DNA of 64,000 nucleotides, from the NCBI GenBank assembly GCA_964612945.1, contig CAZTFR010000005.1, forward strand, positions 1,716 to 65,715. Direction: 5' to 3'. A program made the position numbers and the translations under genes. Positions 20,742 through 42,482 of the stretch are shown one piece after another (position 1 is the first letter of the stretch; the number at the start of each line of letters is the position of its first letter). The DNA comes from an uncultured Thermoplasmatales archaeon. GTDB taxonomy: Archaea > Thermoplasmatota > E2 > DHVEG-1. Below the pieces are notes generated by a model. That model was given only the letters and a program-made list of their open reading frames with translations. It had not been told where the DNA came from and made no database searches.

Positions 20742-21251
20742 TTATTTTCGTGTAATCTTTAGACCCGTGTAGTTAAATTTATTGGATCGTTTCACCAGCG
20801 CCTTGAGTGCGGTATTTGAAATGTTAAAGGTTTCAGAGACCTTGTTTCCGAAGGTTCCATTTTCGCCGATAAAATCATAGATTTCTTCCTCTAGTTCTGA
20901 GAAATTCTGTTCATCAAGAACCGATATGTTAAAGATCTCGCTAATCTCATTGACCGGACAGGAGATGTTGATGTTGAAAAGGGAATAAAACGAGCGGTAC
21001 ATCTTTTGTGGTTTCCCATTGATTCCTTCATTAGGTGTCGTCCATTTGGTCTCAGCAAGTTTCATTTTCTCAAAGTATTCAACCGCGTCTCTTCCTTCAT
21101 CTCCATATTCATGAATGATAACGCTGGTGGGGGTCCAATCATCGGAAATACGGAGAAACACCTCTTTTTTAATGGATGAATCAAAGGCTCTGATAATAGA
21201 GACTAAATCTGCAGAATCATTGATGACTTTTGTGCGAATCATAAAAACCAC
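20742..21251 (-). CDS. Hypothetical cytoplasmic protein
   Basis: 169-aa ORF. It has a clean intergenic context with AT-rich promoter regions on both sides. No recognisable motif. Confidence 0.4.
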   Translation of the reverse strand: MVFMIRTKVINDSADLVSIIRAFDSSIKKEVFLRISDDWTPTSVIIHEYGDEGRDAVEYFEKMKLAETKWTTPNEGINGKPQKMYRSFYSLFNINISCPVNEISEIFNISVLDEQNFSELEEEIYDFIGENGTFGNKVSETFNISNTALKALVKRSNKFNYTGLKITRK

Positions 21252-21420: not shown

Positions 21421-23838
21421 TTAGCTGATTACAAACGGACCTAAAGACAACGCAAAGGAAGTAAGATTTTCACGTCCAACAGAGACACAGATTTGAATTC
21501 TACCAAGCCCAAACTGAGCAGTCTCTACCGAACCAATATCTCCACAGTTCAAATCATACAAGGCAATCGTTTTTGGATGACGAGGATACAAAAGAATACC
21601 CTCTAAAGCAGTAACCGTAAGTGTAATATTCATCTCAGAAACAGCAAAATCACCCATATTAATAACTTCACCAAAGAGTTTTATCGGAGCTGTTTTCGTC
21701 CGCAACAAAAGACTGGTGACGGTGACCTGTTTAGCCGGAGACCAGTCACTTTGCACCCCATACGAATCACGAGCTTTTACTCGAACAAGATAGCTGCCTT
21801 GTTCTTTCCATAGATGAAAGGATTTCGGTTCAGAACGCCATCCACTTGTTGTTCCATCACCCCAATCAAAAAGATAAAACACCTCATCACCCTCCGGATC
21901 AGAAACCGCTGAGGTAAAAAACGTATGATTCCTATTAACAGAGAGACCTCCTGGCCCCGCAGGGGCGCCTGGAGTTTCAGGTGGCGCACTGAGTTCTATG
22001 ATCAGGGTGGGATCTCCAAAAAGATTTAACCCATAGTAGACCCATCGCATACATCCTTCATTAATTCGATAGAGGTTATCCTCCTTGGAATCCTGATTTG
22101 CCTGACCAAGCGAAGTAAAACTTTCTTCAAATATGGCATCATAAAACTCCCGATGAAACCGCTGTGAAGGACCATCTGTTGTTCCTTGTGCACCCCAGCC
22201 ATACCGCGCATTCCAAATCCCTGCAAATGCCGCATGAGCCGTTTTCACCGTAAACGATTCTGCAATACAATCTACACCAGTAGGATTATCAAATCCACCA
22301 GCCATACAACCCTGTGAATACATAAAAGCGGGATACTCATTTGTAAGCTCTTGTTCTACATCAAGGATAGAAAGTTTCATATTTGTTTGATAAAACGCAT
22401 GTCCATCATGATTAATTAAACCGACATTCTGATTTATCCGGTCGATGAGTTCGGATTTCGGCCAATTATTATCAGACCAGTTTCTATCATACAGCTTATC
22501 GATTGCATACACGCCAGAGGGGATACCCATAGTAGTATACCAATACTTGTCACACTGATCGATCAAGTCATCCATCGAATTTCCACCCCATCGTGCCACT
22601 CCAGTAAAACCAAGATCCTCCCCAACCATCAACGCCGTACTAAGACAGGGATCTTCAACGGTGAGATAGGTACAGGTTTTTTCAACAAAATTCTCGACCT
22701 CACTGAGCGTATCAACACAGGCACGTCCCACATAGACTTCAGCAATAAGATCAACATCGCCACCTTCATCGCCATCATCTGGTTCACCCCATTTATCATC
22801 ATTATCATAGTTAAACGTTCCATCCAGGCATCCATAGTAAAAATCCGAAGGCATCTCCATGACGTCTCCACCAGACCATGCCTCAACCCAAAGTTGCTGA
22901 GCAGGGACCTGCTCCGTATCCCCACCGAGTAACACATAATCTACGCCTTGATCAAGATACTCCGTTGAGATATATTCTCGAATCGCTTGGGGTGTTGTCC
23001 TATTTATTTCTTCTATTGTAACAATAGATGTCTGTAAGCCTTGCTCTTCATGGACAGATTTCAAGGGCAAAAATCCCTCCTTCAGTTGTTCTGTAGTAAT
23101 AATGAGAAGATGATGAGGTGAAAACCCCGTAGTTCGTGGCTGATCTGCGGAGAGCGGATAACTTTGAAGTTGCTCAGGGTTATCAACTCTGTTTTGTACA
23201 GCAAGATAGTCCCCATAGCTGTCTCGATACAGAGGTGAAAGGTTTTTATCTGTCGAAGATGTCTGTATGGTAAGCTGAATATTAGAGGAAAAGCAAAGTG
23301 ACTGATCAGAAGAATCATATACTATGGGTTTCAACTGAAGAACTAGCAGTTGATAGCCCCTGAAGTAATAGGTGCCAATAACCCTATACGAGCTACTATC
23401 AGACGGTGACGGCTCTGAAATAGCTGGTATAACTCGATTCTTAACAGTGCAAAAAGGTACAGGATATTCTGCATTTTTCAGACGAAATCCACTTCCTAAC
23501 GATATTGTTTCATCTGAAGAACACCTGATATCTTCTAGCTGCGAGTTTGCCGGAAGCAAAATGATTGCTGATTGAATAGGTAGTAGGGGATGTTCGGGAT
23601 TTGCTGACTGACTTATACCCGGTATCTGCACGAAATCATAGGGTTGATCATCAATTATCTTTTGGGTGAGGATGGGGTCTGAAAATATATACTCAAGCTG
23701 TATCGAATTTGGTGGCAATTGAGATTTTTTTAGACCACTGATGGATATCGATGAACCAATGAAGAGGAAGATTAAAAAAGTAGCAAGAAGGAGACTGAGA
23801 AAACAGCCCTGTTTTCTCATGTCCTGCCACCAAGGCAT
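21421..23838 (-). CDS. Secreted peptidase C25 (gingipain-like cysteine protease) with a PKD domain and a C-terminal type-A module
   Basis: Signal peptide present. YVLLGGDTEQVPAQ, SDFYYG and VYVGRACVDTLSEV match the gingipain YVLLIGD..IPAK / IGRFSCES motifs. Catalytic His (INHDGHAF) and Cys (SQGCMAGGFD) are retained. PKD motif FDWGDGTTSGW. C-terminus ...FGLGRIQI...SLGPFVIS. Confidence 0.75.
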   Translation of the reverse strand: MPWWQDMRKQGCFLSLLLATFLIFLFIGSSISISGLKKSQLPPNSIQLEYIFSDPILTQKIIDDQPYDFVQIPGISQSANPEHPLLPIQSAIILLPANSQLEDIRCSSDETISLGSGFRLKNAEYPVPFCTVKNRVIPAISEPSPSDSSSYRVIGTYYFRGYQLLVLQLKPIVYDSSDQSLCFSSNIQLTIQTSSTDKNLSPLYRDSYGDYLAVQNRVDNPEQLQSYPLSADQPRTTGFSPHHLLIITTEQLKEGFLPLKSVHEEQGLQTSIVTIEEINRTTPQAIREYISTEYLDQGVDYVLLGGDTEQVPAQQLWVEAWSGGDVMEMPSDFYYGCLDGTFNYDNDDKWGEPDDGDEGGDVDLIAEVYVGRACVDTLSEVENFVEKTCTYLTVEDPCLSTALMVGEDLGFTGVARWGGNSMDDLIDQCDKYWYTTMGIPSGVYAIDKLYDRNWSDNNWPKSELIDRINQNVGLINHDGHAFYQTNMKLSILDVEQELTNEYPAFMYSQGCMAGGFDNPTGVDCIAESFTVKTAHAAFAGIWNARYGWGAQGTTDGPSQRFHREFYDAIFEESFTSLGQANQDSKEDNLYRINEGCMRWVYYGLNLFGDPTLIIELSAPPETPGAPAGPGGLSVNRNHTFFTSAVSDPEGDEVFYLFDWGDGTTSGWRSEPKSFHLWKEQGSYLVRVKARDSYGVQSDWSPAKQVTVTSLLLRTKTAPIKLFGEVINMGDFAVSEMNITLTVTALEGILLYPRHPKTIALYDLNCGDIGSVETAQFGLGRIQICVSVGRENLTSFALSLGPFVIS

Positions 23839-26357
23839 ATCAGATTTTGAATTCGTTGAAGCATAGTACTAGCCCACTGAAAAAACGGCGTAAGAAATGT
23901 CTCGAAGCGCTGGATAATTCGATTAAATATTGGAAACATCGGATGGGAGTTTTGATGTGATGTGGAAAGGGTGACTGGTACTGAACAGAAATCAGATATG
24001 TTATGTGAATTTTCTATAACAATTTCCCCAGTGAAATTTGATTGTTTTTCATCAGGTGCTGTGACAACGACAAAAACGCTGAATTCTTGACCGTCTGCTT
24101 GAAGGTCTTCACCATGTTCTGGGAAAAACTGCCAAGTTCCCCAATCGGGAGTCTCAATGATTTCCCAATCAAGACGAGAACCAGTTTCGCCTATATTTTT
24201 AACGACAAAACTCCCTGTTTCAGCAGTTCCAGCGACCATGGTTTCAAACACAAGGTTTCCTTCGCAGCTGAGATCAGATCGCGGTTGCCGGGTGGTAAAC
24301 CGCCAAACAGGGCTTTGCATAAATCTGTTTGAATCATCCCAAATTACAACCCGCCAATAGTATTCTGATGAATACGCAAGAGCTCCTACTTGATATGAAG
24401 ATTCCTCTTGTGCTATGGATACCACCGGTGGTGGATTAGTGGTTCCAAAGTAGACATCATAGGTAAGCCGCTCCTCAGGATCAGGATCACTACCGATCCA
24501 TTGGAGAACAGGGTTGATTGTATGGATATGTGCTCCATCTGCAGGACGCGGGTCAGTGGGTTGATGTGGTGGAAGATTAATTCTAAAGTGTTGCTCGGGC
24601 GTTGTCGTAAGTTTTCCTCTTTTATTTTTGTAGCAAATACTCCAACTAACAACAGTGCCTTGTGCAATCGTTGGATTCGACCAGGTAAAATTTGTCCATA
24701 CCCACGTGTCCAGAAGAGTGAAAATCATAGTGGGGGAACCATATTTCCGTCCACTTTTATGTTCGTTTTCTTCCTCTTCGCCATAGGTTGCAATATTATG
24801 AAAACCATGACGATAGAAGTTGTTTCGTTCTGTTTGAATCCATGCATCACTGCGCGCGTCATTAAAGACGTGGAATTCATCAAAATTGCCAGAGAAGAAT
24901 TTTGTTTTATTAGCATTTGCTCCTATGAATAATCCGTTGGTACTGGCGCTGAGAGGTTGAGTTAGATTCACCTCATTTTCTAGTATTCCATCGACAAAAA
25001 TGGACATTTTGTGTTGAAGGGTATCAACTCGCATAACCACATGTGTATCATATGATATAGTGCGATTCTCTGAGGCCACTGATTCGGTAGTAGTATCTTC
25101 ATAGGTGACTGTTGCAAGGTATTTTCCAGAATAGTCTCCCTGATTGGGTACGTCCATAGCTGGATTTTGTGATCCATTAGAAGAGAATATAGGACGACCA
25201 CTATACTCCACGCCCAGATTTAGCGTAATGGTATATGATTTATCTCTAGGAATGGTGAAGTTATTTATTTCTTTGAAATTATATCCACTAGTATCAGCAT
25301 CCCAACCGTTGCCAGTACTATCTGTGTCATCTATCATATGATGAACCATGAGGTAATCATCATTCCAGACACCTGCTGGATTTTCCTGACTCTCGCATTC
25401 AAGATTACCATAGTACATGTAAAGTTCTGTATCATCTGTTGAGCTGAGATATGGAACCCGTACCCAGGCGTTGAGTGATTTTCGATTAAAGGTTTCAATT
25501 TCATGATCATAGCGTATACTATTTGTCATATCGGTGAAGACAAAATCATCAGCATCTGCTTGTGCCTTGTAGAAATCAATGGAGGTACATCGTATTCGAA
25601 TGGGAAAATCTTCAAAATCATCAAGTACTTCAGTATGATCAATGGTAATCTTTTTTCTATATTTCCATGCTGGATCCCACCATTCTCCATCGAGATGATA
25701 CCAGGTGCCATCCTCATTGACATTTAAGACAGCCTCTTGCAGACCATACTCATCTTTTCCTTGTGCAGAAAGTACGACAAAATTCTCCGGGTTGATCTTT
25801 GATTTTGATTGCTGTACATTTTGATACTGTGGCGGTTTATTCAAAATAGTAATCGTTGCATTATACGTGTCTGGTTCAAGAAAATCTCCAGAAGTTGCTC
25901 CATACCTTGTGACTGGGACAAATGAAAGGTTATGTTCTCCATCGGTGGACTCCTGAAAGACTCGGACAATAATTGTGCAGAGCTGCCCTTGTCCAAGGGG
26001 CAGACCTTCGCCGGGTGTACCCTCTGATTCTGAAAACCAGATTTTAATACGCCGACCACCCGAAGGGGGTGTTTTTATGATATAATTATATGGGTCTTCA
26101 TCTACACAGTTATCAAATTTCAGATCATACATATCTATTTCAGATTCATTAAACACGATATGCATGTTTACCCAGTCAACTTCCTGACTCCAGTTACCAA
26201 ACAACGGGATTTCATGATCAATAACACCTGCACGAGCCGTGGTGTGTTGAATGCGGACACTATCCGCTTCAGGTTCAAATTCTGCGCTTCCAAGAACATT
26301 AGAAAATACAAGAACAATCATCAATATCCCGATAAAGAAACTCTTTGCTTTTTTCAT
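23817..26357 (-). CDS. Secreted surface protein: DUF2341 + LamG/concanavalin-like + FN3-like domain + C-terminal type-B module
   Basis: Signal peptide MKKAKSFFIGILMIVLVFSNVLGSA. WWDPAWKYRKKITIDHTEVLDDFEDFPIRI is the DUF2341 signature. LamG-like segment (…LFIGANANKTKFFSGNFDEFHVFN). FN3-like segment (YYWRVVIWD...PVWRFTT). The C-terminus contains FVVKNIGE. Confidence 0.7.
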   Translation of the reverse strand: MKKAKSFFIGILMIVLVFSNVLGSAEFEPEADSVRIQHTTARAGVIDHEIPLFGNWSQEVDWVNMHIVFNESEIDMYDLKFDNCVDEDPYNYIIKTPPSGGRRIKIWFSESEGTPGEGLPLGQGQLCTIIVRVFQESTDGEHNLSFVPVTRYGATSGDFLEPDTYNATITILNKPPQYQNVQQSKSKINPENFVVLSAQGKDEYGLQEAVLNVNEDGTWYHLDGEWWDPAWKYRKKITIDHTEVLDDFEDFPIRIRCTSIDFYKAQADADDFVFTDMTNSIRYDHEIETFNRKSLNAWVRVPYLSSTDDTELYMYYGNLECESQENPAGVWNDDYLMVHHMIDDTDSTGNGWDADTSGYNFKEINNFTIPRDKSYTITLNLGVEYSGRPIFSSNGSQNPAMDVPNQGDYSGKYLATVTYEDTTTESVASENRTISYDTHVVMRVDTLQHKMSIFVDGILENEVNLTQPLSASTNGLFIGANANKTKFFSGNFDEFHVFNDARSDAWIQTERNNFYRHGFHNIATYGEEEENEHKSGRKYGSPTMIFTLLDTWVWTNFTWSNPTIAQGTVVSWSICYKNKRGKLTTTPEQHFRINLPPHQPTDPRPADGAHIHTINPVLQWIGSDPDPEERLTYDVYFGTTNPPPVVSIAQEESSYQVGALAYSSEYYWRVVIWDDSNRFMQSPVWRFTTRQPRSDLSCEGNLVFETMVAGTAETGSFVVKNIGETGSRLDWEIIETPDWGTWQFFPEHGEDLQADGQEFSVFVVVTAPDEKQSNFTGEIVIENSHNISDFCSVPVTLSTSHQNSHPMFPIFNRIIQRFETFLTPFFQWASTMLQRIQNLICLGGRT

Positions 26358-29300
26358 TTAATGTAACCCCTCCCAATTGAACAGAGTGAAAGTGCGATCG
26401 ATAAGACGTTCGAAAAAGAGTTGAAAAATGGGGAAATCTTGAAGATGAGTATGAACCCATTGAAGAAGAGGATGAGTAGGTGTGAATTGACTTGAAGGGA
26501 CACTAATAGAAATTGGGATATCACAGAAATCATCGGGGTCTTCTACATTTCGTACTCGTAAGGTTTCTTCATAAAGTACATTTGGTCTAAGCGGTAGTTC
26601 AACAATAACGTTCACCTTGCTTTCATCAAGGGTAGATGTGTATCCATTTTTTGGAAGAATTGTCCAGTTTCCCCAGGTTGGTATGTTTTCGGTTTCCCAG
26701 GCCAGAAGCGATAGTGGTTCACCAATATTCTTAACTACAAATTCTCCCGTTATGGTAGCGCCTGGTTGAATATCAGAAAATTCCAGATCGCCTTCACACT
26801 GTAAATCAGAGAGCCGTGGGATCAACTTTGGCTCCAACAGAATATCAACGTCATTGTCTATCTTCACAGATGCCACAGCTTGAAGACCAAAATCAGTAAT
26901 CGAGCTGGATCGATACTCAAAGGGAACGTTATCGACGAGCTCTTCTGGTGTGGACCATGTCTCGCCGCCATCATGAGTCACAGAAGAGTAAAGGATATTG
27001 TCTCTCATAAAGGTACAGACAAAGGTGGTTCCATCGACATGACGGACATCAGGAAATGATTCATCAAGAAGACTCGTTGCAATAGGGGTAACTTCAAGAT
27101 GATTAACATTGCCATGATAGCAGATAATGTCATCATTGTCCTTTTCAGTGGTCACCGCAAGGATCACAAGTTTTCCATTATCTGCAGCAATCGAAGGATA
27201 GCTGAGATTTCCCTCGCCTTCGATAAAGTAGAGTTCTCCATGAAGCGAAAAATCAGCGAAATAGTCCTGTCGAAGGATCAGTCGCCATCCATCTATTTTA
27301 GTCCATGTATCATAGATACTCCATACATCATGCCAGCTATGATCGATGTCTACATCAGTATGGTAACACTGATCATAATGGTAATGGTTCTGATATTCTT
27401 GATACGTGCTTACTACGATTTCATCTGGCCCGGTTTGGTAAATCAAGGAGGGTAAATTAACACCAGAATTATAGTATCCCGGTTCATTTACCCCGTTTTT
27501 ATCAGAGATAAACGAAGCAACACCAAAACGCCAATTCTCCTGTGTGTTGTCGCATGCAATCTCGATATCTCGGATGGAATGGTAACCAAGTGTATTAAGA
27601 GGATACCTTGAAATATCATATGATTCGTAATCCGTTGGATCGTCTGTTTCAAGAAGATAAAATGTTCCAGCATTTCCATCGGAAATAGATGGAATAAGTG
27701 TTGCAAAGAAACGGTTGGTATCCCATCGTTCAATAGCTGGATAATCTTCACCAGTAGTACCTTCAATAACACTGCCGTCATCGTATGTTCTTCCATCATC
27801 GGTAGAATATGTCCATACGGTTTTATTAGACTCTTCATCTCGATAGGCAAATAGATGTACACCGGATAACGATCTGCCAAGTGCAGGATGTAATTGATCA
27901 CCTGCAAGAAGCGGCTGAGGTATGCTGCCTTCTTTCACCAAGGGAGAGACTGCTGCATTGTGTGCAACAGATAGTTTTTCGGTGACTGGCTCCCAGTCAA
28001 TCCTTTCTACAGACACATCAGCATACTCAGTGTTTGGATCATGAGATACCGGCAGGGTAACGGAAAATGTCGCCCATGTACTTTCAACCTTGTAGCTATC
28101 CTGAGCTTTCGCACGGACTACATACTCACCTTTCTCAGACCAGCTATGAGAACGAGCTGCCTGTTGTCCTGAATTAAAGGGGCCGAAAAACTCAACATCT
28201 GAACCATCACCCCAGTCAACATAATACGAAATATTCTCATTTTCCGGATCTGTTGCCTCAAAGGTAAACTCATGCTCAACGTTGATTTTACCCTCAGAAG
28301 AACCTCTAATAATTGGTGAAGTTGGTCGAAGACTATAGATTTTTTCACCAGCAATATCACGATTCTCATTTTCCACCTGAAAGAGAGCTCTGACCCCCGC
28401 ATCACAGATATCTGCAGTCTTATATTCAGAAACAATAGTTTCTTCACCAGAAAACGATGCCTCTTCACTCCAGGTGCGACCGTTATCATATGAAAGTGAT
28501 TTATATAACACACCGTCTTTTTCAAAAGAGCAGATAAATACAGAATGCTCAACATGACGTAAATCAGGATATTGCTCATCACTTGAAGAGAAAGCAATGT
28601 CTACTCGTTTGAGCTTATTTGCATACGAGCCGTTCCCATAGAAGCAGACAATATCATTGTTGCCCTGTTCATCAGTCTCAGCTACAATAACGATAGAATC
28701 ATCATAGGCTGAAATAACAGGGTTTTTGATATTTCCTTCTGCGTTTTCAACTGTATAAATAGATCCTTGATGGGAAAGATCATTAAAGTTGTCTTTACGA
28801 TATACAAGTTTTATAGTCCCTTCATCATCCCAGTCATAGACTGCCCAACTATCCTCTGTGATAGCATCAATATCTGCATCAGTATGCATACATCCCATGA
28901 AATCGTCGTAGACATTAAGATGCATCAGATCAGGATCACTTTTATCTTTGTAGGCAATGTAGGGCCCATCGAATACATCCGGATATCCACAGCAGCGATA
29001 TTGACTGATGACAAGGGAAATGATACCAAATTCATGATCGTTTTGAGAGTTATCACAAGCGATCTCGGAATCAACCATGTTGAAAAAACCGCCCTTACTT
29101 AGATCCCAACGAGAGAGATCATATGTTCCATACTCCACGGGATCTGTTGTTTTAAAAAGATATAAAGCTGCACCTTCTGCATCATTTTCATCTGGCACCA
29201 TGGTTCCATAAAAGCAGGAGTCCGCCCAATGTTGAATGGATGGATAATCTGCTCCTGATCCTCCAGCAAGATACCGTCCTACACCAAAGGTTTCTCCGTC

Positions 29301-29642
29301 ATCTTCTGAATAGGTCCAAATGACCTGATCGAAATCATCTTCTTGATGTCTATAGGCTACCATTTGAATTCCTCCCTCAAGACGGCCGATTGCAGGATGA
29401 GTTTGATTTCCAGGTCCATTAACTGATCGGTCGGTGGATATAAAGGAGAGGGATCCCTCATTAGAAGATAACTGGACCGTGAATTGATTAGGCATGATAT
29501 CATTAATTTCTTTAATTGTAAACTGTTGTTTAGTTTGTCTATTGCTTTGAATGTGTGTTGCAGTAGCAAAGCTTGTCATTAGAAGACAGAGTGTAACGGC
29601 AAGCAGTACTCCTTTTTTAAACATGATATTGTTTTTTCTCAT
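26358..29642 (-). CDS. Secreted BNR/Asp-box repeat protein (sialidase-like beta-propeller) with internal duplication, a PKD domain and a C-terminal type-B module
   Basis: Asp-box repeats SEDDGETF, SYDNGRTWS, STDDGRTY, THDGGETWS. The two halves are clearly homologous. PKD motif YYVDWGDGS. The start is chosen at the Met preceded by GGAGG (9-nt spacing). The track ORF extends to 29678. Confidence 0.7.
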   Translation of the reverse strand: MRKNNIMFKKGVLLAVTLCLLMTSFATATHIQSNRQTKQQFTIKEINDIMPNQFTVQLSSNEGSLSFISTDRSVNGPGNQTHPAIGRLEGGIQMVAYRHQEDDFDQVIWTYSEDDGETFGVGRYLAGGSGADYPSIQHWADSCFYGTMVPDENDAEGAALYLFKTTDPVEYGTYDLSRWDLSKGGFFNMVDSEIACDNSQNDHEFGIISLVISQYRCCGYPDVFDGPYIAYKDKSDPDLMHLNVYDDFMGCMHTDADIDAITEDSWAVYDWDDEGTIKLVYRKDNFNDLSHQGSIYTVENAEGNIKNPVISAYDDSIVIVAETDEQGNNDIVCFYGNGSYANKLKRVDIAFSSSDEQYPDLRHVEHSVFICSFEKDGVLYKSLSYDNGRTWSEEASFSGEETIVSEYKTADICDAGVRALFQVENENRDIAGEKIYSLRPTSPIIRGSSEGKINVEHEFTFEATDPENENISYYVDWGDGSDVEFFGPFNSGQQAARSHSWSEKGEYVVRAKAQDSYKVESTWATFSVTLPVSHDPNTEYADVSVERIDWEPVTEKLSVAHNAAVSPLVKEGSIPQPLLAGDQLHPALGRSLSGVHLFAYRDEESNKTVWTYSTDDGRTYDDGSVIEGTTGEDYPAIERWDTNRFFATLIPSISDGNAGTFYLLETDDPTDYESYDISRYPLNTLGYHSIRDIEIACDNTQENWRFGVASFISDKNGVNEPGYYNSGVNLPSLIYQTGPDEIVVSTYQEYQNHYHYDQCYHTDVDIDHSWHDVWSIYDTWTKIDGWRLILRQDYFADFSLHGELYFIEGEGNLSYPSIAADNGKLVILAVTTEKDNDDIICYHGNVNHLEVTPIATSLLDESFPDVRHVDGTTFVCTFMRDNILYSSVTHDGGETWSTPEELVDNVPFEYRSSSITDFGLQAVASVKIDNDVDILLEPKLIPRLSDLQCEGDLEFSDIQPGATITGEFVVKNIGEPLSLLAWETENIPTWGNWTILPKNGYTSTLDESKVNVIVELPLRPNVLYEETLRVRNVEDPDDFCDIPISISVPSSQFTPTHPLLQWVHTHLQDFPIFQLFFERLIDRTFTLFNWEGLH

Positions 29643-29646
29643 ATCT

Positions 29647-35592: not shown

Positions 35593-35740
35593 ATTTATCC
35601 CCTTACTTCTATTGTTTAGACGACTATTTTATATATAGTTTATTTGGAATTCATCGAATTAATTATGAATATAATATAAAAATGATGATATGTATTATAA
35701 CTCTTTGTTAGGATACGAAAAAAAGAGAGGAGATATGATG

Positions 35741-38700
35741 TTACCCTATCTCTAGTTGAGGATTAACAACAAAAGGGAAGAACACAAAGGCAGTTGCTGT
35801 TTTTTGAATCGTTGTTGAATCAGTTGTGGCTTGCAGAGTTATTGTGACTCTTCCAAGACCGAATAAGAAAATTCGGACGTTAACAGATTCATCCGGTTCT
35901 AAGTTTTGAATGTGCCCTGTTTTCTGACGTCCAAGCGGTAAGAGCAGAAGTCCATTGTTTATTTCACATGACCAGTTAATGTCATGTATTGTGTCTTCGC
36001 CAGTATTGCTGATCGAGAGGGAAAGCCCTATTCCGCCGGTGATATTTGATATGTTGAGTTGCTCAGGTTTATATTGTGCGGGTGTAACAAACTGCCAGAG
36101 ATTGCTTTCGTTTTGTTGTCCCATACTATCTTTTGAGACAACCTTCCAATAGTAGGTTGTTGCTTCTTTAAGGTTATTTGTTTGATAGAAGGGTGTATCG
36201 ATATTATCAACAACTTTTGATGGAGTCGTGGTTGTTCCGAAGAAGACATCATATGTTGTGCTATCATCAGGATCTGGATCTCCTCCAATCCAGCTGAGAA
36301 GAGGACTATTGAGTGAAGAGATGGCTTCATCTTCTGGTATGGGTTTGTTGGGTTGATTTGGTGGATTATTACTCCACGTTATAGGATTGATAAGTGGATA
36401 ATGATCGTGGTCGTTTTCGGAGGGTTTATAGTATCCTTCAACTTCATAGGGTGTATCTCCTATGCCGTCACTTCCGGTCTCATTTTGTCCCGGGCCTGAA
36501 TAGTTATCTGACCCGTTGTAATCATCCCAATAGTTTCCGCCGAGAGGATACTCTTCATTCCAAAGATTATGGTCACGTGACCAAGCATTGCATTGATTGT
36601 TAATGAAGTTGTTATAATGGACTTTGTTCTTGTAGGTATCCCAGTCTGTTTCCACTCCGACATCATTGTTTTGGATGATATTTTCTGTTACCTCGCATCT
36701 GGAGGTAAAACAGTCGGCATCTGTGGTGGTGTAAAACATGACGCCGATACCGTTGTCTTCTATTTTATTATGAATAATTGGATTATATGCGGTGTCGATA
36801 TACCAGATACCATATTCGAGGTTGTTTCGTATAAGATTTTTAGATAGAGTATTGTTATGTTTGTTTTCCCAATCGTTTTCACATTCTATTGCCAGGCCAT
36901 ATTTTTGATTATTATCAACGATATTTTCTGTGATAATATTATGACACGATTGCTCATATGCCCACAAACCACCTCGTGAGTTATTGACAAATTTGTTTTG
37001 AACTACGACGTTACGTTCTGAGTTGAGCAGGGTAATCCCACGATAGTTTTGGTAGAAGGTATTACCAGAGAAGATGTTGTAATCAGAGGCGTATGCAAAT
37101 ACACCCATATAAAAAATCGGGCCGATTACATTTCGCGTTATAACATTGTAGTTACTTCGTTCCCGATCATTTCGATGATGTCCAGATAAGGAGATACCAA
37201 CTCGAGCGTTCTGAATATGGTTATGAGCAATAAAGGTATTATGTGCTGCACAGTAGATAGCTGCTAATTCGGTTATGTCATCACCACAATTCATCCGAGT
37301 CCCGGTGTTTTGAATCGTCAGACCCATAATTGAGACATTTTCTGCAATAATATAAAGAATTGAGTCCTTATCCCACCCATCAACAATCGTTGTATCTCTA
37401 TCTTCGCCTACAATAGTAATTGTCTTCCATATTGGCGAGTTGACCTCATGATAATACCCTGGTTTTACAACAATGGTGCCACCGTTTTTCACAGAGACAA
37501 TGGCGTCATGGATGGCTTCATATTTATCATATCCAAATCCAGGTGTTGTTTGGTCAAAATCATCATCAACAATTACTCTCTGAGGTACTATGGTTGGATC
37601 CTTTTTTGAGCTTATAAGTGGTTTTTTATCCTCTGCATTGCTTCCACTGATCTGATAGGGCGTATCTCCGATGCAATCACCATCCTTATCTTCTCCATCG
37701 TAGTCATCCCAGAAATTACCACCCTGTTGAGTATACCATTGAGTATTAAGGCCCTGATCATCTACGTTTTGATCATTGTATTTTATGTTATTGTTGGTTA
37801 CAAGAACGTCTGACACTGCATTTACATAGACTCCTTTTTGTCCGTTTTGTATGCCAAATCCGGTAACTGTTACTTTGTCGCAATATACACCAACAGCGTG
37901 ACCTTTAGTCATTCCATCGATGATTGTTGAGGTTCGGTTTTCACCGATTAATTCTATCTCTTTATCAATAGTAATGCTTTCCCTATAGATGCCATCTCGA
38001 ACAAAAATCCGATAGCCATCACTTGCATTGTCAATGGCATCTTGAATGGAGGTATAATCAACAAGGTAGTTTATTGGTTGACTATCCACAATAAATTGTT
38101 CGTATCCTCCGATGAGAACTATTTCTTTGTCACTATAGAGATATTTTTGAGTCTTAACTTTAAGATATACCTCGTATTTTGCCGATGATAAAACGCTTGT
38201 ATCAAAAGTGCATAATACTCCATCGATGACAGTTTCTGTAGAATTTACAAGTTCTATCCACTCCGAAACTCCACGTTTTGTATAACTGACGGTGTAATAT
38301 TCAAAGTCTTCAGACCAAGCCGATCCTGTGATATCAACAATGGGATCGCTTTCAATCACGATTTTATCAAGATTGGCAATTACGGGGTCTCGAATGATAG
38401 CATCATACGCATTAATTCGACCTCTACCAATCGGAACGGATGAAGATACCTCATCACAGGCATGTTTCAAAATCGTTTTTATCATATCAGGTTTTAAGGC
38501 TGGATTATTTGCAAGTAGCAGAGCAACGAGTCCTGCAGCATGCGGACAGGCCATACTTGTTCCACTTGCAACAGTATAATTCTCTCCGACATCAAGTCCC
38601 ATCGAGGTTCCTTCTGCCTCGAGTGAAAGAATACTTACGCCTGGTGCAGCAACGTCAACTAATTCACCCCAATTAGAAAATGATGCTTTTTTATCATTAT

Positions 38701-39850
38701 AATCGGTTGCAGCAATAACAATTGTTTCATCCATGTTTTGAGGAGTATAATACGATACATCATCATTTGCATTTCCAGCGGCAAAAACAACAACACATCC
38801 TTTGTTATGGACATATCGCACTGCAGATTCAATTACTGGAACGGATTCGACTCTACTGGAATAACTCCAGCTATTACTGACCACCTGTGCGCCATTATCT
38901 ACTGCCCATCGGAGACATTTAGCCAATGTATCAGTATAAGCAGATCCGCTACTGCTAAACCCTTTGACTCCCATAATCTGTGCATGCCAGTTGACACCTA
39001 CGACGCCCACAGAGTTGTTTCCCATACCTGCGATTGTTCCAGAGCAATGTGTTCCATGACCATGATCATCTTTAGGATCACCGTTGTTATACGCATAATT
39101 TGCGCCATAGATATTATCTACAAATCCATCATTATCTGTATCAGTGCCATCAAGTACTTCATCTTCATTAATCCATATGTTATCAACGATATCCTCATGG
39201 GTGTAATCGATACCGGTGTCAATAACGCCTACTACAACATCATGACTTCCCGTGCAAATATCCCATGCTTTGGCAGTATCGATGTTATGCATCCCATATA
39301 GGTCTTTGTAATTTTGATTCCAACTCCCAGATGTGTGATAATAGGGATCATTGGGTTCAAGGCAAAGCGTCGCAATATAATTAGGTTGAGCTAGTTCTAT
39401 CTCTGGTAATTGTTCCCATTCTCGTACTTCATTTTCAACATTAAAAGTGTCAGTATGGATCTTCACCCATCTATCAAGCCCATAGCAAGAGTTATCCGAT
39501 ATTTTCAACTGCGTCGTTTCGAATATGAAAGAAACATTTTCAACTGAAGAAAGATCTGGATTTTTGTTTTGTAATGCTTCAAGAAATATCTGTGTTTTAT
39601 CGTGTGTTGAAATATCAATATCCGATTGAATTTTTGCTAGGATTACACCGGGTTCACACAAGTTCTTATTCTCTTTTAAACGTTTGATACTATTGGTTTG
39701 GATTTTTTTATCAATATATGATTTTTGATAGATGGTCCGTTTTGAGTTATGCGGTGCTATCGATTCAAAAGAATTTGTTTCTATTGCGACAACAGAGGTA
39801 GCGGTTAATATCAGCATACAAATAGTTACTACTACAAGTTTTTCTTTCAC
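35741..39850 (-). CDS. Secreted subtilisin-like serine protease (peptidase S8) with PbH1/NosD repeats, an FN3-like domain and a C-terminal type-A module
   Basis: Signal peptide present. D/H/S triad motifs VGVIDTGID, HGHGTHCSGTIAG and GTSMACPHAAG. PbH1 repeats and an FN3-like segment (YYWKVVSKD...WQFVT). C-terminus …FGLGRVTI…FVFFPFVV. Length 1369 aa. Confidence 0.9.
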   Translation of the reverse strand: MKEKLVVVTICMLILTATSVVAIETNSFESIAPHNSKRTIYQKSYIDKKIQTNSIKRLKENKNLCEPGVILAKIQSDIDISTHDKTQIFLEALQNKNPDLSSVENVSFIFETTQLKISDNSCYGLDRWVKIHTDTFNVENEVREWEQLPEIELAQPNYIATLCLEPNDPYYHTSGSWNQNYKDLYGMHNIDTAKAWDICTGSHDVVVGVIDTGIDYTHEDIVDNIWINEDEVLDGTDTDNDGFVDNIYGANYAYNNGDPKDDHGHGTHCSGTIAGMGNNSVGVVGVNWHAQIMGVKGFSSSGSAYTDTLAKCLRWAVDNGAQVVSNSWSYSSRVESVPVIESAVRYVHNKGCVVVFAAGNANDDVSYYTPQNMDETIVIAATDYNDKKASFSNWGELVDVAAPGVSILSLEAEGTSMGLDVGENYTVASGTSMACPHAAGLVALLLANNPALKPDMIKTILKHACDEVSSSVPIGRGRINAYDAIIRDPVIANLDKIVIESDPIVDITGSAWSEDFEYYTVSYTKRGVSEWIELVNSTETVIDGVLCTFDTSVLSSAKYEVYLKVKTQKYLYSDKEIVLIGGYEQFIVDSQPINYLVDYTSIQDAIDNASDGYRIFVRDGIYRESITIDKEIELIGENRTSTIIDGMTKGHAVGVYCDKVTVTGFGIQNGQKGVYVNAVSDVLVTNNNIKYNDQNVDDQGLNTQWYTQQGGNFWDDYDGEDKDGDCIGDTPYQISGSNAEDKKPLISSKKDPTIVPQRVIVDDDFDQTTPGFGYDKYEAIHDAIVSVKNGGTIVVKPGYYHEVNSPIWKTITIVGEDRDTTIVDGWDKDSILYIIAENVSIMGLTIQNTGTRMNCGDDITELAAIYCAAHNTFIAHNHIQNARVGISLSGHHRNDRERSNYNVITRNVIGPIFYMGVFAYASDYNIFSGNTFYQNYRGITLLNSERNVVVQNKFVNNSRGGLWAYEQSCHNIITENIVDNNQKYGLAIECENDWENKHNNTLSKNLIRNNLEYGIWYIDTAYNPIIHNKIEDNGIGVMFYTTTDADCFTSRCEVTENIIQNNDVGVETDWDTYKNKVHYNNFINNQCNAWSRDHNLWNEEYPLGGNYWDDYNGSDNYSGPGQNETGSDGIGDTPYEVEGYYKPSENDHDHYPLINPITWSNNPPNQPNKPIPEDEAISSLNSPLLSWIGGDPDPDDSTTYDVFFGTTTTPSKVVDNIDTPFYQTNNLKEATTYYWKVVSKDSMGQQNESNLWQFVTPAQYKPEQLNISNITGGIGLSLSISNTGEDTIHDINWSCEINNGLLLLPLGRQKTGHIQNLEPDESVNVRIFLFGLGRVTITLQATTDSTTIQKTATAFVFFPFVVNPQLEIG

Positions 39851-40062
39851 GTGTCTTACGCCCCGTACAGATGTAGTGTTTTTTAGTTGCTCATCAATAT
39901 GAATAATGAGCAGTAGAGAAAATATATATAAGTTATATATATAAATTTTATTAAATGTTCACATTCTAATGTTCTTGTTTAAAAAAAGTTTACATAAATT
40001 ATATAAATGATTAAATTTACATTATAGTGGGAATAGACAAAATAACCTTCACCGTGGTAATT

Positions 40063-41703
40063 ATGAGAATGAATACAAAATTGAAAGTACTAATAAGCAT
40101 ACTGCTGTGCATATCTTTTTTTGCATCGAGTGCAACAGCAATAATACCAGAGATACCAGCTGATACAGAGCCCGTACCTTCACTTTTCGGTACGATTGGA
40201 GCATCTGAGCAGATGAGTCTCCCAGTTGGACCTCGGGGTGAACCTCCGGATGTATTGTGGAACAATACATTTGGAACATCGTTTCATGACGAGAAAGCAA
40301 GAGATATTAAAAAAACCAATGATGGTGGATATATTGTAACGGGGTATGCCCAGCCAGTTGGAGCAGATGCGGATGCATGGCTCTTAAAAGTTGATGCTGA
40401 GGGTAATAAACTCTGGAATACCACCTTCGGTGGCTGTGGATCTGAAATTGCCTATGCAGTATTGCAAACCGACGACAGCGGATATATTCTAACCGGAGAA
40501 TCACGTTCTACAGATACAAGCGGAGATGGTTTTGTCATTAAAACCGATAGCTTGGGCAACATGCTCTGGAATTTCTCCTTTGGAGTACCTGGGGGAGAAG
40601 ATTTTGGATATAAACTAATAGAATCATCAGATAACAACTACATTGTCGTAGGGACCACGAATCTATTAGCGACGCAAGAGATGTTAATAGGCAATGCAAC
40701 TCTTCTGAAAATTGATCAACAGGGTTCACTGATATGGCAAAAAACATATGGTGGAGAAACGATAGATGCAGGATTCTCCGTTGATCAAACCGATGATTAT
40801 GGATTCATCATCAGCGGATTTACCTACTCGTATGCGACAGGTGAGGCCTATGTTGATGCATGGCTGTTAAAAACAGATGCGCAAGGAAACGAACTGTGGA
40901 ATCTCTCTATTGGATATGAATATGCTGCTGAAGTTACCTATGATGTAATACAAACTAATGATGGAAGCTATGCACTGACCGGGTACAGCAGCACAAATGG
41001 CGATATGGATGTCCTTCTAATCAAAACAGATGGAAAAGATTCGCATGAAATCTTTACCTACGATCGATCAAAATTGGATGTGGGGCAGAGTTTTGATCAA
41101 ACCGACGATGAAGGGTTTATCATCGTTGGAACTACGATGAATTGGTATGATAACGAAGGTGGATGTGTTCCAGGCTGGGATCATATTGATTTTTGGATAT
41201 TCAAAACAGATAAAAGCGGAAAGCTTGAGTGGGACACATACTATGGAGGGAAATATGCTGACACCGCATATGCAGTTCAACAGACATCAGATGATGGATT
41301 TATTGTTGCAGGATATTGTATCAAACTTGTAGACGGTAATCAGTATACACGAGACGCATGGCTGATGAATTTTGGAACAAAAGAAGAACCCGAAGTGACG
41401 ATACAAGACGTGAAACCAGGTATCGGATCACTAAACATAACCTTTGAAAATACAGGTGCAGTGTTATGTGGTTGTGCGTGGAATATCAGTGTTCAGGGCG
41501 GCATTCTAAAAAACATTAATGTTTCAGAAAAAGGTGCAGTCTATGGTCTACCAGCCGGAGAGTCTGTATCTGTGGATACAGAAAAACCAATCTTTGGTCT
41601 AGGAAAAATTTCAGTTGAGATTACAGCCTCCTATGCCCGTCCCTGGTCAGGATCAGCATTTGTCATTGGGCCATTTATACTTCATATTCAATCCACCAGT
41701 TAA
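40063..41703 (+). CDS. Secreted beta-propeller protein (SBBP-type repeats: DGGYIxxGYt...DAWLxKxDxxGNxLWNxxFGG) with a C-terminal type-A module
   Basis: Signal peptide MRMNTKLKVLISILLCISFFASSATA. At least seven copies of the DGGYI-TG-...-DAWLLK-D-G-LWN-FGG repeat. C-terminus …ENTGA…IFGLGKISV…FVIGPFILHIQSTS. The start is chosen at the ATG; the track ORF begins at an upstream GTG (40027). Confidence 0.7.
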   Translation: MRMNTKLKVLISILLCISFFASSATAIIPEIPADTEPVPSLFGTIGASEQMSLPVGPRGEPPDVLWNNTFGTSFHDEKARDIKKTNDGGYIVTGYAQPVGADADAWLLKVDAEGNKLWNTTFGGCGSEIAYAVLQTDDSGYILTGESRSTDTSGDGFVIKTDSLGNMLWNFSFGVPGGEDFGYKLIESSDNNYIVVGTTNLLATQEMLIGNATLLKIDQQGSLIWQKTYGGETIDAGFSVDQTDDYGFIISGFTYSYATGEAYVDAWLLKTDAQGNELWNLSIGYEYAAEVTYDVIQTNDGSYALTGYSSTNGDMDVLLIKTDGKDSHEIFTYDRSKLDVGQSFDQTDDEGFIIVGTTMNWYDNEGGCVPGWDHIDFWIFKTDKSGKLEWDTYYGGKYADTAYAVQQTSDDGFIVAGYCIKLVDGNQYTRDAWLMNFGTKEEPEVTIQDVKPGIGSLNITFENTGAVLCGCAWNISVQGGILKNINVSEKGAVYGLPAGESVSVDTEKPIFGLGKISVEITASYARPWSGSAFVIGPFILHIQSTS

Positions 41704-41748: not shown

Positions 41749-42168
41749 CTATCGATGAAGCCAATCACGAGCGATCCGATTGATCCTCATGTCCTCTACA
41801 AATCCTGATGCTAACAGTTTCTTTTTAATTTCTTCGATAGAAAGTGTGCTCTTTGAAATATCTGCTATAATATCCCATCGTGCTTTTGTGCCCCGTTGAT
41901 AACTTTTCGATTCGGTCATCACAAGATCAACGCGTAATGCTGCTAGCTCTGCAGCAATCTTTGCAAGACATCCCGGGGTGTCTCCGAAGTCAAGTTGTAT
42001 TTGAATGAGATCTTTGTGATCTGCGTAGATAGGACTGATGATAAGGGTATTGGTTTTTTTATCAAGACTGAGAAGAATTTCGTCTCCTTCTTTTAAATCC
42101 AAGGTTTCCCTATATTCAGTTGGAATAACCAGTCGACCACGAGTGTCAAGACGAATTACTGAGTTCAT
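41749..42168 (-). CDS. AbrB/MazE-type (SpoVT/AbrB swapped-hairpin) DNA-binding domain fused to an ACT-like domain
   Basis: N-terminal VIRLDTRGRLVIPTEYRETLDLKEGDEILL is the SpoVT/AbrB beta-barrel signature. The C-terminal GCLAKIAAELAALRVDLVM is ACT-like. An oligo-T tract (A-run at 41705-41714 on +) follows the stop. Confidence 0.55.
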   Translation of the reverse strand: MNSVIRLDTRGRLVIPTEYRETLDLKEGDEILLSLDKKTNTLIISPIYADHKDLIQIQLDFGDTPGCLAKIAAELAALRVDLVMTESKSYQRGTKARWDIIADISKSTLSIEEIKKKLLASGFVEDMRINRIARDWLHR

Positions 42169-42482
42169 AATACTCTACCTGTGGGAAATTCGTGGGTATA
42201 TGTATATTGTAGTATTTAAAAATTTCTATTGTACATACCTCCATAGCTCACATATTTAGAACTAATCGGAGAAACAAAAAATTGGTACAACAGACACCTC
42301 ACAAAAATACCTCAAACAAAAACCCAGCCACCACAAAAACACACATCGAATTTGCAGAAGAATACTACCGACAAGAACCCAAAGACTGTTTTTTACACGC
42401 ACTCCGAAAACATAAAAAAGGGTGAAATCAAGAGATGGAAAAAATAGGCTCTCTCACCAATATTCTCTGCTGTAGACAAGTA

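Follow-up and report, generated by a model that had tools for sequence, protein, structure and literature searches.

The window, by which we mean the whole stretch of 64,000 nucleotides that was analysed, harbors a chromosomal island of about 21 kb situated upstream of the L15-SecY cluster and close to it (Table 1). The island encodes six acidic, multi-domain proteins, P1 to P6, whose coordinates and sizes (558-1981 aa) in the preliminary description of this DNA agree exactly with the ORF listing. The variable segment is wider than these six genes. Since related loci lack a counterpart of the AbrB/MazE-type ORF beyond P6 at this site, we count this ORF as part of the segment, which extends up to the tRNA-Ala gene. 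No peptide or amino-acid transporter was found within or adjoining the island. The host is an uncultured sediment archaeon of the Thermoplasmatota, probably from the Thermoprofundales (MBG-D) or a close relative. Its SecY has 68-79% identity to that of many Thermoplasmatota MAGs, including Thermoprofundales SM1-50, M9B1D, M11B2D, and 3300003432D, and the flanks of the window have a synteny like that of Thermoprofundales. The gene order kept in the relatives is XPD-Trm5-Tsr3-ACD-CarS-ArsR on one side of the site and tRNA-Ala-MTase-L15-SecY-Adk-EMC3-Cmk-Cbf5 on the other.

Table 1. Features of the island and its borders (positions in the window; export is predicted).
Feature	Position	Strand	Remarks
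ArsR-like (PF09824) regulator gene	20742..21251	-	Kept left border of the hot spot, with or without island
P1, exported C25 (gingipain-family) cysteine peptidase	21421..23838	-	805 aa
P2, exported non-catalytic protein	23817..26357	-	846 aa
P3, exported protein	26358..29642	-	1094 aa from ATG 29642 (1106 aa from TTG 29678)
P4, exported giant protein	29647..35592	-	1981 aa
P5, exported S8 subtilase	35741..39850	-	1369 aa
Divergent P5/P6 intergenic region	39851..40026		176 nt, 77.8% AT, TATA-like boxes on both strands
P6, exported beta-propeller protein	40027..41703	+	558 aa
AbrB/MazE-type small DNA-binding protein	41749..42168	-	139 aa
tRNA-Ala(GGC)	42482..42555	-	Kept landmark of the hot spot; island adjoins its 3' side

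The genes make up two or three transcription units, with P5 either alone or together with the operon P4-P3-P2-P1, and P6 divergent. The overlapping or coupled starts previously reported for the minus strand hold for the latter operon: the stop of P4 (TGA) is followed after 4 nt by the ATG of P3, with GGAGG upstream; the TAA of P3 abuts the ATG of P2; and P2 and P1 overlap by ATGA or by 22 nt. Sites of the GGAGG type precede the coupled starts. They do not hold for P5 and P4, because these are separated by a spacer of 148 nt with 76% AT. The start of P3 is probably the ATG and not the upstream TTG, and P6 may start at the ATG at 40063, giving 546 aa. Only 0.2% of windows of equal size are as AT-rich as the spacer between P5 and P6, so that the AT-rich region expected there is present, and its TATA-like boxes would be the divergent promoters. 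Signal peptides were judged by hydropathy alone. Each of the six proteins has exactly one hydrophobic segment, which is N-terminal, preceded by K/R, and signal-like as previously claimed, and all six products look exported. None of them has a C-terminal transmembrane or PGF-CTERM anchor.

Two of the proteins are predicted to be working endopeptidases, and they belong to different clans. P1 has a signal-like segment (residues 9-33) followed by a propeptide-like N-domain, a C25 domain at residues 245-612 (DNA 22003-23106; Peptidase_C25 in Pfam, 8e-50) with an intact His480/Cys511 dyad, a PKD domain (residues 630-705, DNA 21724-21951), and a C-terminal CARDB-like domain that we call type A (residues 712-805, DNA 21424-21705). 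At E<=1e-5 we found 889 homologues, of which the best has 47% identity to P1; those with a name are Thermoplasmatota C25 peptidases. P5 has an S8 domain at residues 203-465 (Peptidase_S8 in Pfam, 4.5e-55), in which the Asp211/His265/Ser432 triad is intact and Asn326 is also present. Beyond the S8 domain lie two regions of the NosD/beta-helix kind, one FN3-like module, and, at the C-terminus, a type A domain (residues 1262-1369). Both family calls of the preliminary description are thus upheld. Among solved structures, the best relative of P5 is deseasin MCP-01 (3vv3, E 1e-53), a multi-domain collagenolytic S8 subtilase with a PKD domain from a deep-sea sediment bacterium. Its Asp, His, Asn, and Ser motifs are identical to those of P5, and both are secreted-type, multi-domain S8 proteins from sediment organisms, but P5 is archaeal and has a different set of accessory modules, including the beta-helices and the CARDB-like domain.

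P4 appears to be a catalytically dead C25 paralogue with an ancestry separate from that of P1, to which it has 24% identity. Its C25-fold domain (residues 118-470, Peptidase_C25 6e-51) has no propeptide, and Gln322 and Tyr364 replace the catalytic His and Cys; in the alignment with RgpB of Porphyromonas gingivalis (1cvr) they stand at His211 and Cys244. Among 169 C25 sequences, no other lacks both residues, which bears out the earlier designation of P4 as a pseudo-C25 protein. The rest of the giant consists of two NosD/parallel beta-helix regions, at least five PKD domains, and two modules of about 170 aa without assignment, and we recognised no C-terminal anchor on it. The alignment of P4 with RgpB (1cvr, 4ief; E 3e-14) spans the catalytic C25 domain together with the Ig-like domain behind it, and the nearest relatives of the C25 domain of P4 include T9SS Por_Secre_tail proteins and one named Planctomycetota. 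The model of PorU, the T9SS sortase, also recognises P1 and P4 by its C25 part, but with scores of 46-84 bits, far under the cut-off of 420. Unlike in the RgpB and PorU systems, the host is archaeal and P4 lacks His and Cys, and the T9SS C-terminal domain (PF18962) was not found in any protein of the window.

The remaining three proteins are non-catalytic. P2 carries the two domains previously assigned to it, DUF2341 (residues 270-348, 1e-5) and LamG_3 (364-508; Laminin_G_3 2e-12), both found with Pfam. They are followed by an FN3-like module (594-689) in common with P5 at 43% identity, and by an Ig-like 'choice-of-anchor-D-like' module with an amphipathic FP-containing tail (694-846). P3 (35% identity) and the C25 protein of M9B1D have the same terminal module. 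P3 consists of two tandem Asp-box (BNR-like) modules of about 365 aa (37% mutual identity, E 7e-83) with a PKD domain between them, and ends with the Ig-like module and tail. The BNR label stands, with a BNR_2 match (33.3 bits for a cut-off of 31.4) and four Asp-boxes, and Pfam also finds the PKD domain; a propeller fold is predicted, the AF2 model of a single module having a pLDDT of 35. P6 has no match in Pfam. Its propeller (about residues 75-447, followed by a type A domain at 455-558) is recognised from three stretches of homology with the beta-propeller of CylK (7fh8/7ron, E 4e-11), whereas the SBBP label given to it previously finds a match in the NCBIfam model Lepto_SBBP_lipo (E 1.9e-9) that is far under the model cut-off.

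Four of the six proteins thus lack a catalytic domain, which speaks against a kit for proteolysis, and carbohydrate-binding or carbohydrate-active proteins are at least as typical a setting for beta-helix, BNR, and LamG modules as partners in proteolysis. One could imagine that these modules, pectate-lyase-like in the case of the beta-helices (NosD/Beta_helix in P4 and P5), sialidase-like in that of the Asp-boxes of P3, and joined by the LamG of P2, act on glycans or glycoproteins and that the peptidases are accessory. We regard this as very unlikely: neither Pfam nor NCBIfam gives a glycoside hydrolase or lyase family, the model of the P3 module provides no basis for a fold or for catalytic residues, and beta-helices of the NosD type often occur as non-catalytic appendages on the surface proteins of archaea.

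The less ordinary part of the finding is the C-terminal modules. The type A domain is on P1, P5, and P6, and the Ig-like module with the FP tail is on P2 and P3. We found the type A domain in 3,213 clusters, as a single copy and almost always terminal, at 0-8 residues from the C-terminus in about 143 of the 150 top cluster representatives. Its carriers are exported proteins with very diverse passenger domains, and it is typical of the archaeal lineage of the host. Its model is an 8-strand beta-sandwich (pLDDT 88.9) that matches only generic Ig-like sandwiches; matches to CARDB (PF07705) are marginal or occasional, and we found no curated family model that covers it. The domain resembles the sorting signals of T9SS (CTD) and of archaeosortases in being single-copy, C-terminal, and attached to diverse exported passengers, but unlike archaeosortase signals it has no transmembrane helix or basic tail. 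To judge by these features, the type A domain, and likewise the short "ERFPxL" tail, may be an exchangeable module for anchoring or sorting that has not been described before; we infer the sorting role of type A from its position alone, and we know of no partner sorting enzyme.

Such common C-terminal modules suggest a single surface destination, and four non-catalytic proteins made of PKD, FN3-like, beta-helix, LamG, and propeller modules could form an adhesion or envelope locus in which the giant repeat proteins are structural or adhesive, the peptidases only mature or shed them, and contact with prey or host is possible. At the same site, another genome (locus L001) has a cadherin/Big_9/PKD adhesin-like protein. 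We nevertheless consider this unlikely, as most relatives lack the block, which cannot be a core envelope component, S-layer or archaeosortase-type signals are absent, peptidase cargo recurs at the site in other genomes, and the literature describes the lineage as degrading protein outside the cell. The link to the S-layer proposed earlier found no backing either in S-layer families, in C-terminal transmembrane or PGF-CTERM anchors, or in conservation of the block, and we saw no pointer to the suggested predation toolkit.

In 16 relatives, the ArsR-like gene and the MTase gene lie 0.25-0.84 kb apart; a further 11 have 3-6 kb with unrelated cargo between these genes. Secreted peptidases are often among this cargo: M9B1D has a C25 and a C13/C14-like protein, as well as a P6-like propeller, locus L006 has two M28, and the complete chromosome CP070836 has a C25. 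In locus L070, an S8/NosD/PKD protein with 41% identity to P5 lies just upstream of L15-SecY; matches to ArsR and MTase were not found there. Because the block is absent from the site in the 16 relatives, and P2, P4, and P5 each remain alone in their cluster when about 15 billion proteins are grouped at 90% identity, the block is, on these comparisons, accessory, lineage-specific, and strain-variable, and not a core S-layer operon. The preliminary description had named a conserved core block, or lost catalytic residues or signal peptides, as grounds against it, and we observed neither.

The site resembles tRNA-adjacent genomic islands in its tRNA neighbor, presence/absence pattern, variable cargo, and mild composition shift (GC3 of 0.33 in the island vs 0.43 in the core; RSCU correlation of 0.74 between island and core vs 0.90 within the core), but it lacks an integrase, att-type direct repeats, and mobility genes. 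The low GC3 may also mean weak expression. It would be possible to see the island as the decayed remains of an integrative element that targets tRNA genes, with incidental and partly bacterial cargo that forms no functional unit, given its composition, its place at the 3' side of tRNA-Ala(GGC), the insertions on either side of the tRNA in relatives, the orphan AbrB/MazE-like gene at the tRNA end, and the T9SS-type and Planctomycetota relatives of P4. However, no integrase or direct repeats were found, nor a tRNA fragment at the far end, the ORFs are all intact and very long, and four genes are translationally coupled. The lineage-typical domain on P1, P5, and P6 argues for assembly within the lineage by domain shuffling. 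We give such a remnant little credence; moreover, it concerns origin and is compatible with the function that we favor. The modest difference in composition from the flanks and the singleton proteins might also betray foreign DNA joined to an archaeal contig during assembly or binning. This has a negligible probability, since archaeal synteny is kept on both sides within one contig, the best P1 homologues are from Thermoplasmatota, the type A domain ties three proteins to the lineage, and other MAGs, as well as a closed chromosome, have related cargo at this site.

We favor, with a probability of roughly 0.7, a lineage-specific accessory block at a tRNA-Ala hot spot that lets the host bind and digest detrital protein or glycoprotein outside the cell. 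The segment from the ArsR-like gene to tRNA-Ala(GGC) is a recurrent insertion hot spot in which the block sits, and the six proteins would leave the cell by Sec export. P5 and P1 would then cut these substrates, P2, P3, P4, and P6, built of binding-type modules, may co-operate with them as substrate- or surface-binding partners, and the common C-terminal modules would hold all but P4 at the cell surface. The six-gene combination was not found elsewhere: 80 metagenomic C25 loci have only sporadic S8-like, P3-like, or P6-like neighbors. Hence, co-location may mirror the landing site of the genes and not a common function.

The locus makes a good example but no surprise, as it fits the protein-degrading lifestyle of a lineage for which numerous C25 and other extracellular peptidases, both encoded and expressed, are already on record (PMC6461988, PMC6752024, PMC9585477). 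The preliminary description missed this context. Extracellular C25 peptidases of sediment archaea were described by Lloyd et al. 2013 (cited within PMC6461988), and Thermoprofundales encode and express extracellular C25, C1A, M09B, and S8 peptidases (PMC6461988). In White Oak River sediment, C25 account for 41-45% of the peptidase genes with signal peptides, and substrates of Arg-specific endopeptidases show the fastest hydrolysis (PMC6752024). Predicted plasmids carry C25 genes in 27 Thermoprofundales genomes (PMC9585477). P1 resembles the C25 of Thermoprofundales/MBG-D in its signal peptide, propeptide-like domain, His/Cys dyad, and PKD, and hundreds of its homologues in Thermoplasmatota have 40-47% identity. 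It differs in lacking a close orthologue, and its gene is the last of a four-gene operon that also holds the dead P4. The site homologous to the present island in M9B1D, scaffold_412 (our locus L037), is the same hot spot, and its C25 gene M9B1D_scaffold_412_9 is listed as 'C25, extracellular, TPM 14,720' (PMC6461988), i.e., as extracellular and highly transcribed.

The ORF listing of the window returned the six giant exported ORFs of the preliminary description exactly where it had placed them, between 21421 and 41703. Five of them (P5, P4, P3, P2, P1, in the order of transcription) lie head-to-tail on the minus strand, and P6, on the plus strand, is transcribed away from P5. We find that this block is an accessory filling of a recurrent chromosomal hot spot, and neither a core operon nor an obvious integrative element. 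As a gene cluster it is a further example and brings no new principle. Its parts of most worth are the pseudo-C25 giant (P4), the hot spot beside a tRNA-Ala gene, and C-terminal modules that are described in no database and are shared by exported proteins of the island. The coordinates of the features, the domains of the proteins, and the contents of related loci are collected in the table.

The flanks of the island are made of archaeal housekeeping genes (carAB, XPD, Trm5, CDP-archaeol synthase, L15, SecY, Adk, Cbf5, exosome, and proteasome). A scan with SecY across a sample of one genome per species returned only MAGs of Thermoplasmatota, at 79% identity or less, including SM1-50, M9B1D, M11B2D, and 3300003432D, which are listed as Thermoprofundales/MBG-D by Zhou et al. 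(PMC6461988). Gene order around the hot spot is conserved in about 35 loci, and the interval from the ArsR-like gene to the methyltransferase gene contains a tRNA-Ala(GGC) in all 26 loci scanned for it. The gap between these two genes measures 0.25-0.84 kb in 16 loci, where the tRNA is its sole content. It measures 3-6 kb in 11 other loci, where unrelated cargo was inserted on one or other side of the tRNA. In the window, the segment from the ArsR-like gene to the tRNA spans 21.2 kb. Membrane proteins are also apparent among the ORF translations of the cargo of other loci.

The proteins and their composition point in the same direction as the variable gap. At 90% identity, each of P2, P4, and P5 forms a cluster of its own among some 15 billion proteins, and the best homologue of P1 is only 47% identical. 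The GC content at third codon positions (GC3) is 0.33 in the island and 0.43 in the core, and codon usage correlates at 0.74 between island and core, against 0.90 within the core. The comparison with related genomes thus shows a block that is neither core nor conserved at the site, and the accessory status claimed earlier holds, given an empty site in 16 relatives, other cargo in 11, and three singleton proteins. The same counts led us to reject a core S-layer or envelope operon, and the suggested S-layer association is left without support, as the block is not conserved in related genomes. A classic integrative element was considered as well, since the island is adjacent to a tRNA and absent from relatives. 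However, we found no integrase or recombinase domain in the seven ORFs, no word of at least 11 nt shared between the two junctions of the island that could represent direct repeats, and no tRNA fragment of at least 13 nt elsewhere, including the far end of the island, and we rejected it. An assembly artefact was also discarded, because synteny continues past either end of the island and its proteins have C-terminal domains typical of the lineage. The variable segment further comprises an AbrB/MazE-type ORF of 139 aa, between the island and the tRNA, which matches NCBIfam PRK08577 with an E-value of 1.6e-32, below the cut-off. It has no partner toxin gene and no counterpart at the site in related loci.

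Table. Features of the island, of its hot spot, and of related loci (positions in the window refer to its forward strand)
Feature	Protein or locus	Position	Basis or detail
Peptidase_C25 (PF01364); PKD	P1	C25: residues 245-612	Pfam; C25 170.5 bits, cut-off 23
DUF2341; Laminin_G_3	P2		Pfam
BNR_2; PKD	P3		Pfam; BNR_2 33.3 bits, just above cut-off 31.4
Peptidase_C25 (PF01364); NosD/Beta_helix; five PKD	P4	C25: residues 118-470	Pfam; C25 174.2 bits
Peptidase_S8 (PF00082); NosD/Beta_helix	P5		Pfam; S8 187.4 bits
Type A domain	P1	21424-21705	
Type A domain	P5	35744-36067	
Type A domain	P6	41389-41700	
Type A domain	L006	5219-6892 (-)	outside window
Type A domain	L006	7092-8726 (-)	outside window
FP tail	P2	23820-23960	
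FP tail	P3	26361-26500	
FP tail	L037	4650-4745; 8370-8451	outside window
FP tail	L041	2955-3030	outside window
AbrB/MazE-type ORF	window	41749-42168 (-)	
tRNA-Ala(GGC)	window	42482-42555	
P6-like propeller, C13/C14-like peptidase, C25 peptidase	M9B1D		cargo; Pfam
Two M28 peptidases	L006		cargo; Pfam
C25 peptidase	closed chromosome CP070836		cargo; Pfam
Cadherin/PKD protein	L001		cargo; Pfam
S8/NosD/PKD protein	L070	just upstream of L15-SecY	41% identical to P5; no ArsR or methyltransferase match in locus
Restriction-enzyme-like	L034, L049		cargo; appearance of ORF translations only
Histidine kinases	L043, L044		cargo; appearance of ORF translations only
DNA-related genes	L008		cargo; appearance of ORF translations only
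P5-like S8/beta-helix protein	L090		neighbour of P1-family gene; 34% over ~1090 residues
P6-like propeller	L101		neighbour of P1-family gene
P3-like tandem protein	L112		neighbour of P1-family gene

The layout of the stops and starts indicates that P4, P3, P2, and P1 form a translationally coupled operon. At the junction between P4 and P3, 4 nt separate the TGA stop from an ATG with GGAGG upstream, and for these reasons P3 probably starts at this ATG (29642) rather than at the TTG at 29678. The TAA stop of P3 directly abuts the ATG of P2, and the TGA stop of P2 overlaps the start of P1. The latter may alternatively lie at Met7 (23820 instead of 23838), in which case it would overlap the stop of P2 as ATGA. 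Similarly, P6 could start at the ATG at 40063 (MRMNTKLK...) instead of 40027. The spacer between P5 and P4 has 148 nt and is 76% AT. The one between P5 and P6 is 77.8% AT, among the top 0.2% of windows of the same size, and TATA-like boxes occur on each of its strands. Scans for sigma-70 promoters and intrinsic terminators gave background levels only, with models that are not applicable to an archaeon. All six proteins are acidic and hydropathy analysis identified in each a single strongly hydrophobic segment, located N-terminally after Lys/Arg, in line with the signal peptides that had been proposed. Beyond the N-terminus, 19-residue windows revealed no hydrophobic segment in any of them.

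Most of the domains assigned earlier to the six ORFs were recovered by Pfam. P1 has an intact catalytic dyad, His480 and Cys511, in the columns of His211 and Cys244 of RgpB, and the domain score and the dyad place it in family C25 as a predicted active peptidase. In P5, Asp211, His265, the oxyanion Asn326, and Ser432 are all present and sit in the same motifs as in deseasin MCP-01 (3vv3, E-value 1e-53), which together with the domain score places P5 in family S8 as a predicted active enzyme. Hence, the proposal of two proteases from different clans agrees with predicted catalytic residues that are intact in both proteins. P3 consists of two tandem modules of 365 residues that are 37% identical (E-value 7e-83), with a PKD domain between them, and has four Asp-boxes (S-x-D-x-G-x-T-W), at residues 124, 396, 625, and 901, two per module. 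Outside the PKD domain it matches no PDB sequence, and no relative turned up when metagenomes were scanned with P3 as the only query. Since the AF2 model of the module, built from a two-row alignment with its tandem twin only, is unusable (pLDDT 35), we infer the propeller fold of P3 from the sequence. The PKD domains of P3 (28056-28316) and P1 (21724-21951) match PDB 4xed, with E-values of 3e-25 and 3e-11. This is the PKD domain of an M14 carboxypeptidase, which we take to come from an MBG-D single-cell genome.

P6 had been described as an SBBP propeller. The propeller part of this description is supported by homology and repeats, and the SBBP part is not, since the match with the NCBIfam model Lepto_SBBP_lipo (36.7 bits) is well below the cut-off of 400. 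There is no match with Pfam even at E-values up to 10. A phmmer search matched P6 to CylK (7fh8, 7ron) with an E-value of 4e-11 across three stretches, in a region that is presumably the propeller of CylK, and about seven repeats of the type D-x-G-[YF]-I-[IV]-x-G are visible. P6 is thus a predicted beta-propeller of about seven repeats.

The most unusual protein of the island is P4. It aligns with RgpB over the C25 domain (E-value 3e-14) and carries Gln322 and Tyr364 at the positions of the catalytic His211 and Cys244 of RgpB, with an insertion of 13 residues after the His position, as expected from its earlier description as a pseudo-C25 protein. We aligned P4 and P1 with 47 P4-like and 120 P1-like homologues. 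In the 169 sequences, the His column has a His in 168 and the Cys column a Cys in 167, and P4 is the only one lacking both. The propeptide PF08126 is present in 42 of the 47 listed homologues of P4; P4 itself has no Pfam match to it and the corresponding columns of the alignment are empty. Given the replacement of both catalytic residues and the lack of propeptide in an intact ORF of 1981 codons, we class P4 as a genuine pseudo-peptidase, with a C25 fold but outside the active members of the family. Its C25 domain shares no more than 24% identity with P1. The nearest relatives (36-39% identity) include active enzymes with T9SS tails, one named Planctomycetota, and archaeal-type proteins with PKD and the CARDB-like C-terminal domain that we call type A. 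This identity and the make-up of these relatives argue for an ancestry separate from that of P1, which may have included transfer from bacteria. P4 also has two modules of about 170 residues, at residues ~1460-1640 and ~1830-1981 (30103-31230 and 29650-30100), that begin with F(L/F)(E/D)DF(N/E)(G/S)G and end with DD(I/V)...G. They match nothing in Pfam or NCBIfam, and we presume that they resemble MAM or CBM modules.

The six-gene arrangement was in none of the 80 metagenomic loci drawn with the alignment of the P1 family as a query, and few of these loci had neighbours from other families of the island (L090, L101, and L112). Two long contigs with P1 homologues had unrelated neighbours, with C1, M28, C15, and M29 peptidases nearby in one of them. 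These results suggest that the six families belong to a shared exoproteome toolkit, loosely and variably clustered. Thermoprofundales are known to encode many extracellular peptidases, and genes of the C25, C1A, M09B, and S8 families are transcribed in situ (PMC6461988). The same work gives M9B1D_scaffold_412_9 as "C25, extracellular, TPM 14,720", and we found that the gene lies on the scaffold of L037, at the same hot spot as the island. In White Oak River sediment, C25 accounts for 41-45% of the peptidase genes with signal peptides and the fastest hydrolysis was that of gingipain-type substrates (PMC6752024). The predicted plasmids of 27 Thermoprofundales genomes carry C25 genes (PMC9585477), in line with an accessory behavior at the hot spot.

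Considering this documented lifestyle, the island is probably a lineage-specific kit by which detrital protein or glycoprotein would be captured and hydrolyzed outside the cell, with two predicted working endopeptidases and four binding-type partners. The substrates, the co-operation of the six proteins, and their retention at the surface are what we infer from it. The initial interpretation hence stands for the accessory status and, as a predicted function, for extracellular proteolysis; it finds no support for predation, nor for the S-layer. The kit would be relevant because Thermoprofundales and their benthic relatives among the archaea are regarded as playing a large part in the recycling of detrital protein in marine sediment, where C25-type enzymes dominate the pool of exported peptidase genes. 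The genes of such exported peptidases sit here in a fast-turning hot spot beside a tRNA-Ala, and domain shuffling produces new combinations, one of which joins a catalytically dead C25 to binding modules.

P1, P5, and P6 share a homologous C-terminal domain of about 100 residues, the type A domain, which ends in a hydrophobic strand (e.g., AFVLLFFI). No curated model of Pfam or NCBIfam covers it, and its one match there, with CARDB, is marginal (E-value 0.07). Its AF2 model, from 43 sequences, is an eight-stranded beta-sandwich (pLDDT 88.9). Foldseek searches of the PDB with this model returned only generic Ig, MG, and transglutaminase-barrel folds with E-values of at least 6e-3, and no specific link to the CTD of T9SS. 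In a word-indexed search for homologues, the type A profile retrieved mostly short fragments. A more informative, exhaustive profile search gave 3,213 clusters at 50% identity, 1,730 of them with an E-value of 1e-10 or lower. Among the top 150 clusters, about 143 have the domain in a single copy whose end is 0-8 residues away from the C-terminus. Its passengers are diverse (PKD, PQQ-type and BNR propellers, FG-GAP, beta-helix, S8, LamG, and M28), and 77 of 84 full-length carriers have a signal-like N-terminus. P2 and P3 share instead an Ig-like module, whose counterpart in the M9B1D C25 protein has a marginal match with choice-of-anchor D (E-value 0.012), and an amphipathic tail (FP tail) with a consensus near LLERFPxxFPILRxLL. 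The tail is degenerate in P2 and P3, clear in many homologues, and matches no NCBIfam or Pfam model.

Type A is found within 2 residues of the end in 31 of the 120 best P1 homologues, and 48 of the 89 without it have an FP-containing tail. In 162 related loci, a biased sample of which half was chosen through C25, about 245 proteins bear a signal and lack internal TM segments; 73 of them end in type A, 34 in an FP tail, and only 8 in a TM-like segment. Homologous passengers may differ in the element they carry, as do P6 and its M9B1D homologue, or P1 and the M9B1D C25 protein. None of the six proteins has a Por_Secre_tail (PF18962/TIGR04183), and the host is an archaeon; archaeosortase signals (PGF-CTERM and similar) are also missing, with no NCBIfam CTERM match and no C-terminal TM helix. 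The terminal position, the diverse cargo, the mutual exclusivity within one family of orthologous C25 proteins, and the exchange of elements between homologous passengers raise the possibility, to which we give about one chance in five, that type A and the FP tail can replace each other as signals for anchoring or sorting, in a route of cell-surface attachment not yet described in Archaea. They would then be functional analogues of the CTD of T9SS or of archaeosortase signals, and provide a simple sequence rule to predict which exported proteins are surface-bound in a large group of uncultured archaea. A bolder extension, in which a C25-family enzyme would process these signals, by analogy with PorU of the T9SS, and the dead C25 of P4 would be a binding adaptor, seems very improbable.

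Apart from the island, the region 3000-7500 of the window has a GC content of 0.50-0.54, a GC3 of 0.58, and a GC skew of up to +0.41, for a GC content of ~0.42 elsewhere. It encodes a family-B DNA polymerase (3772-6018) that scores under the cut-offs of NCBIfam, a ribbon-helix-helix/ORF56-like protein (6910-7467), a sce7726-family protein (3363-3797), and an unannotated ORF (6019-6873). This block may be an integrated element.
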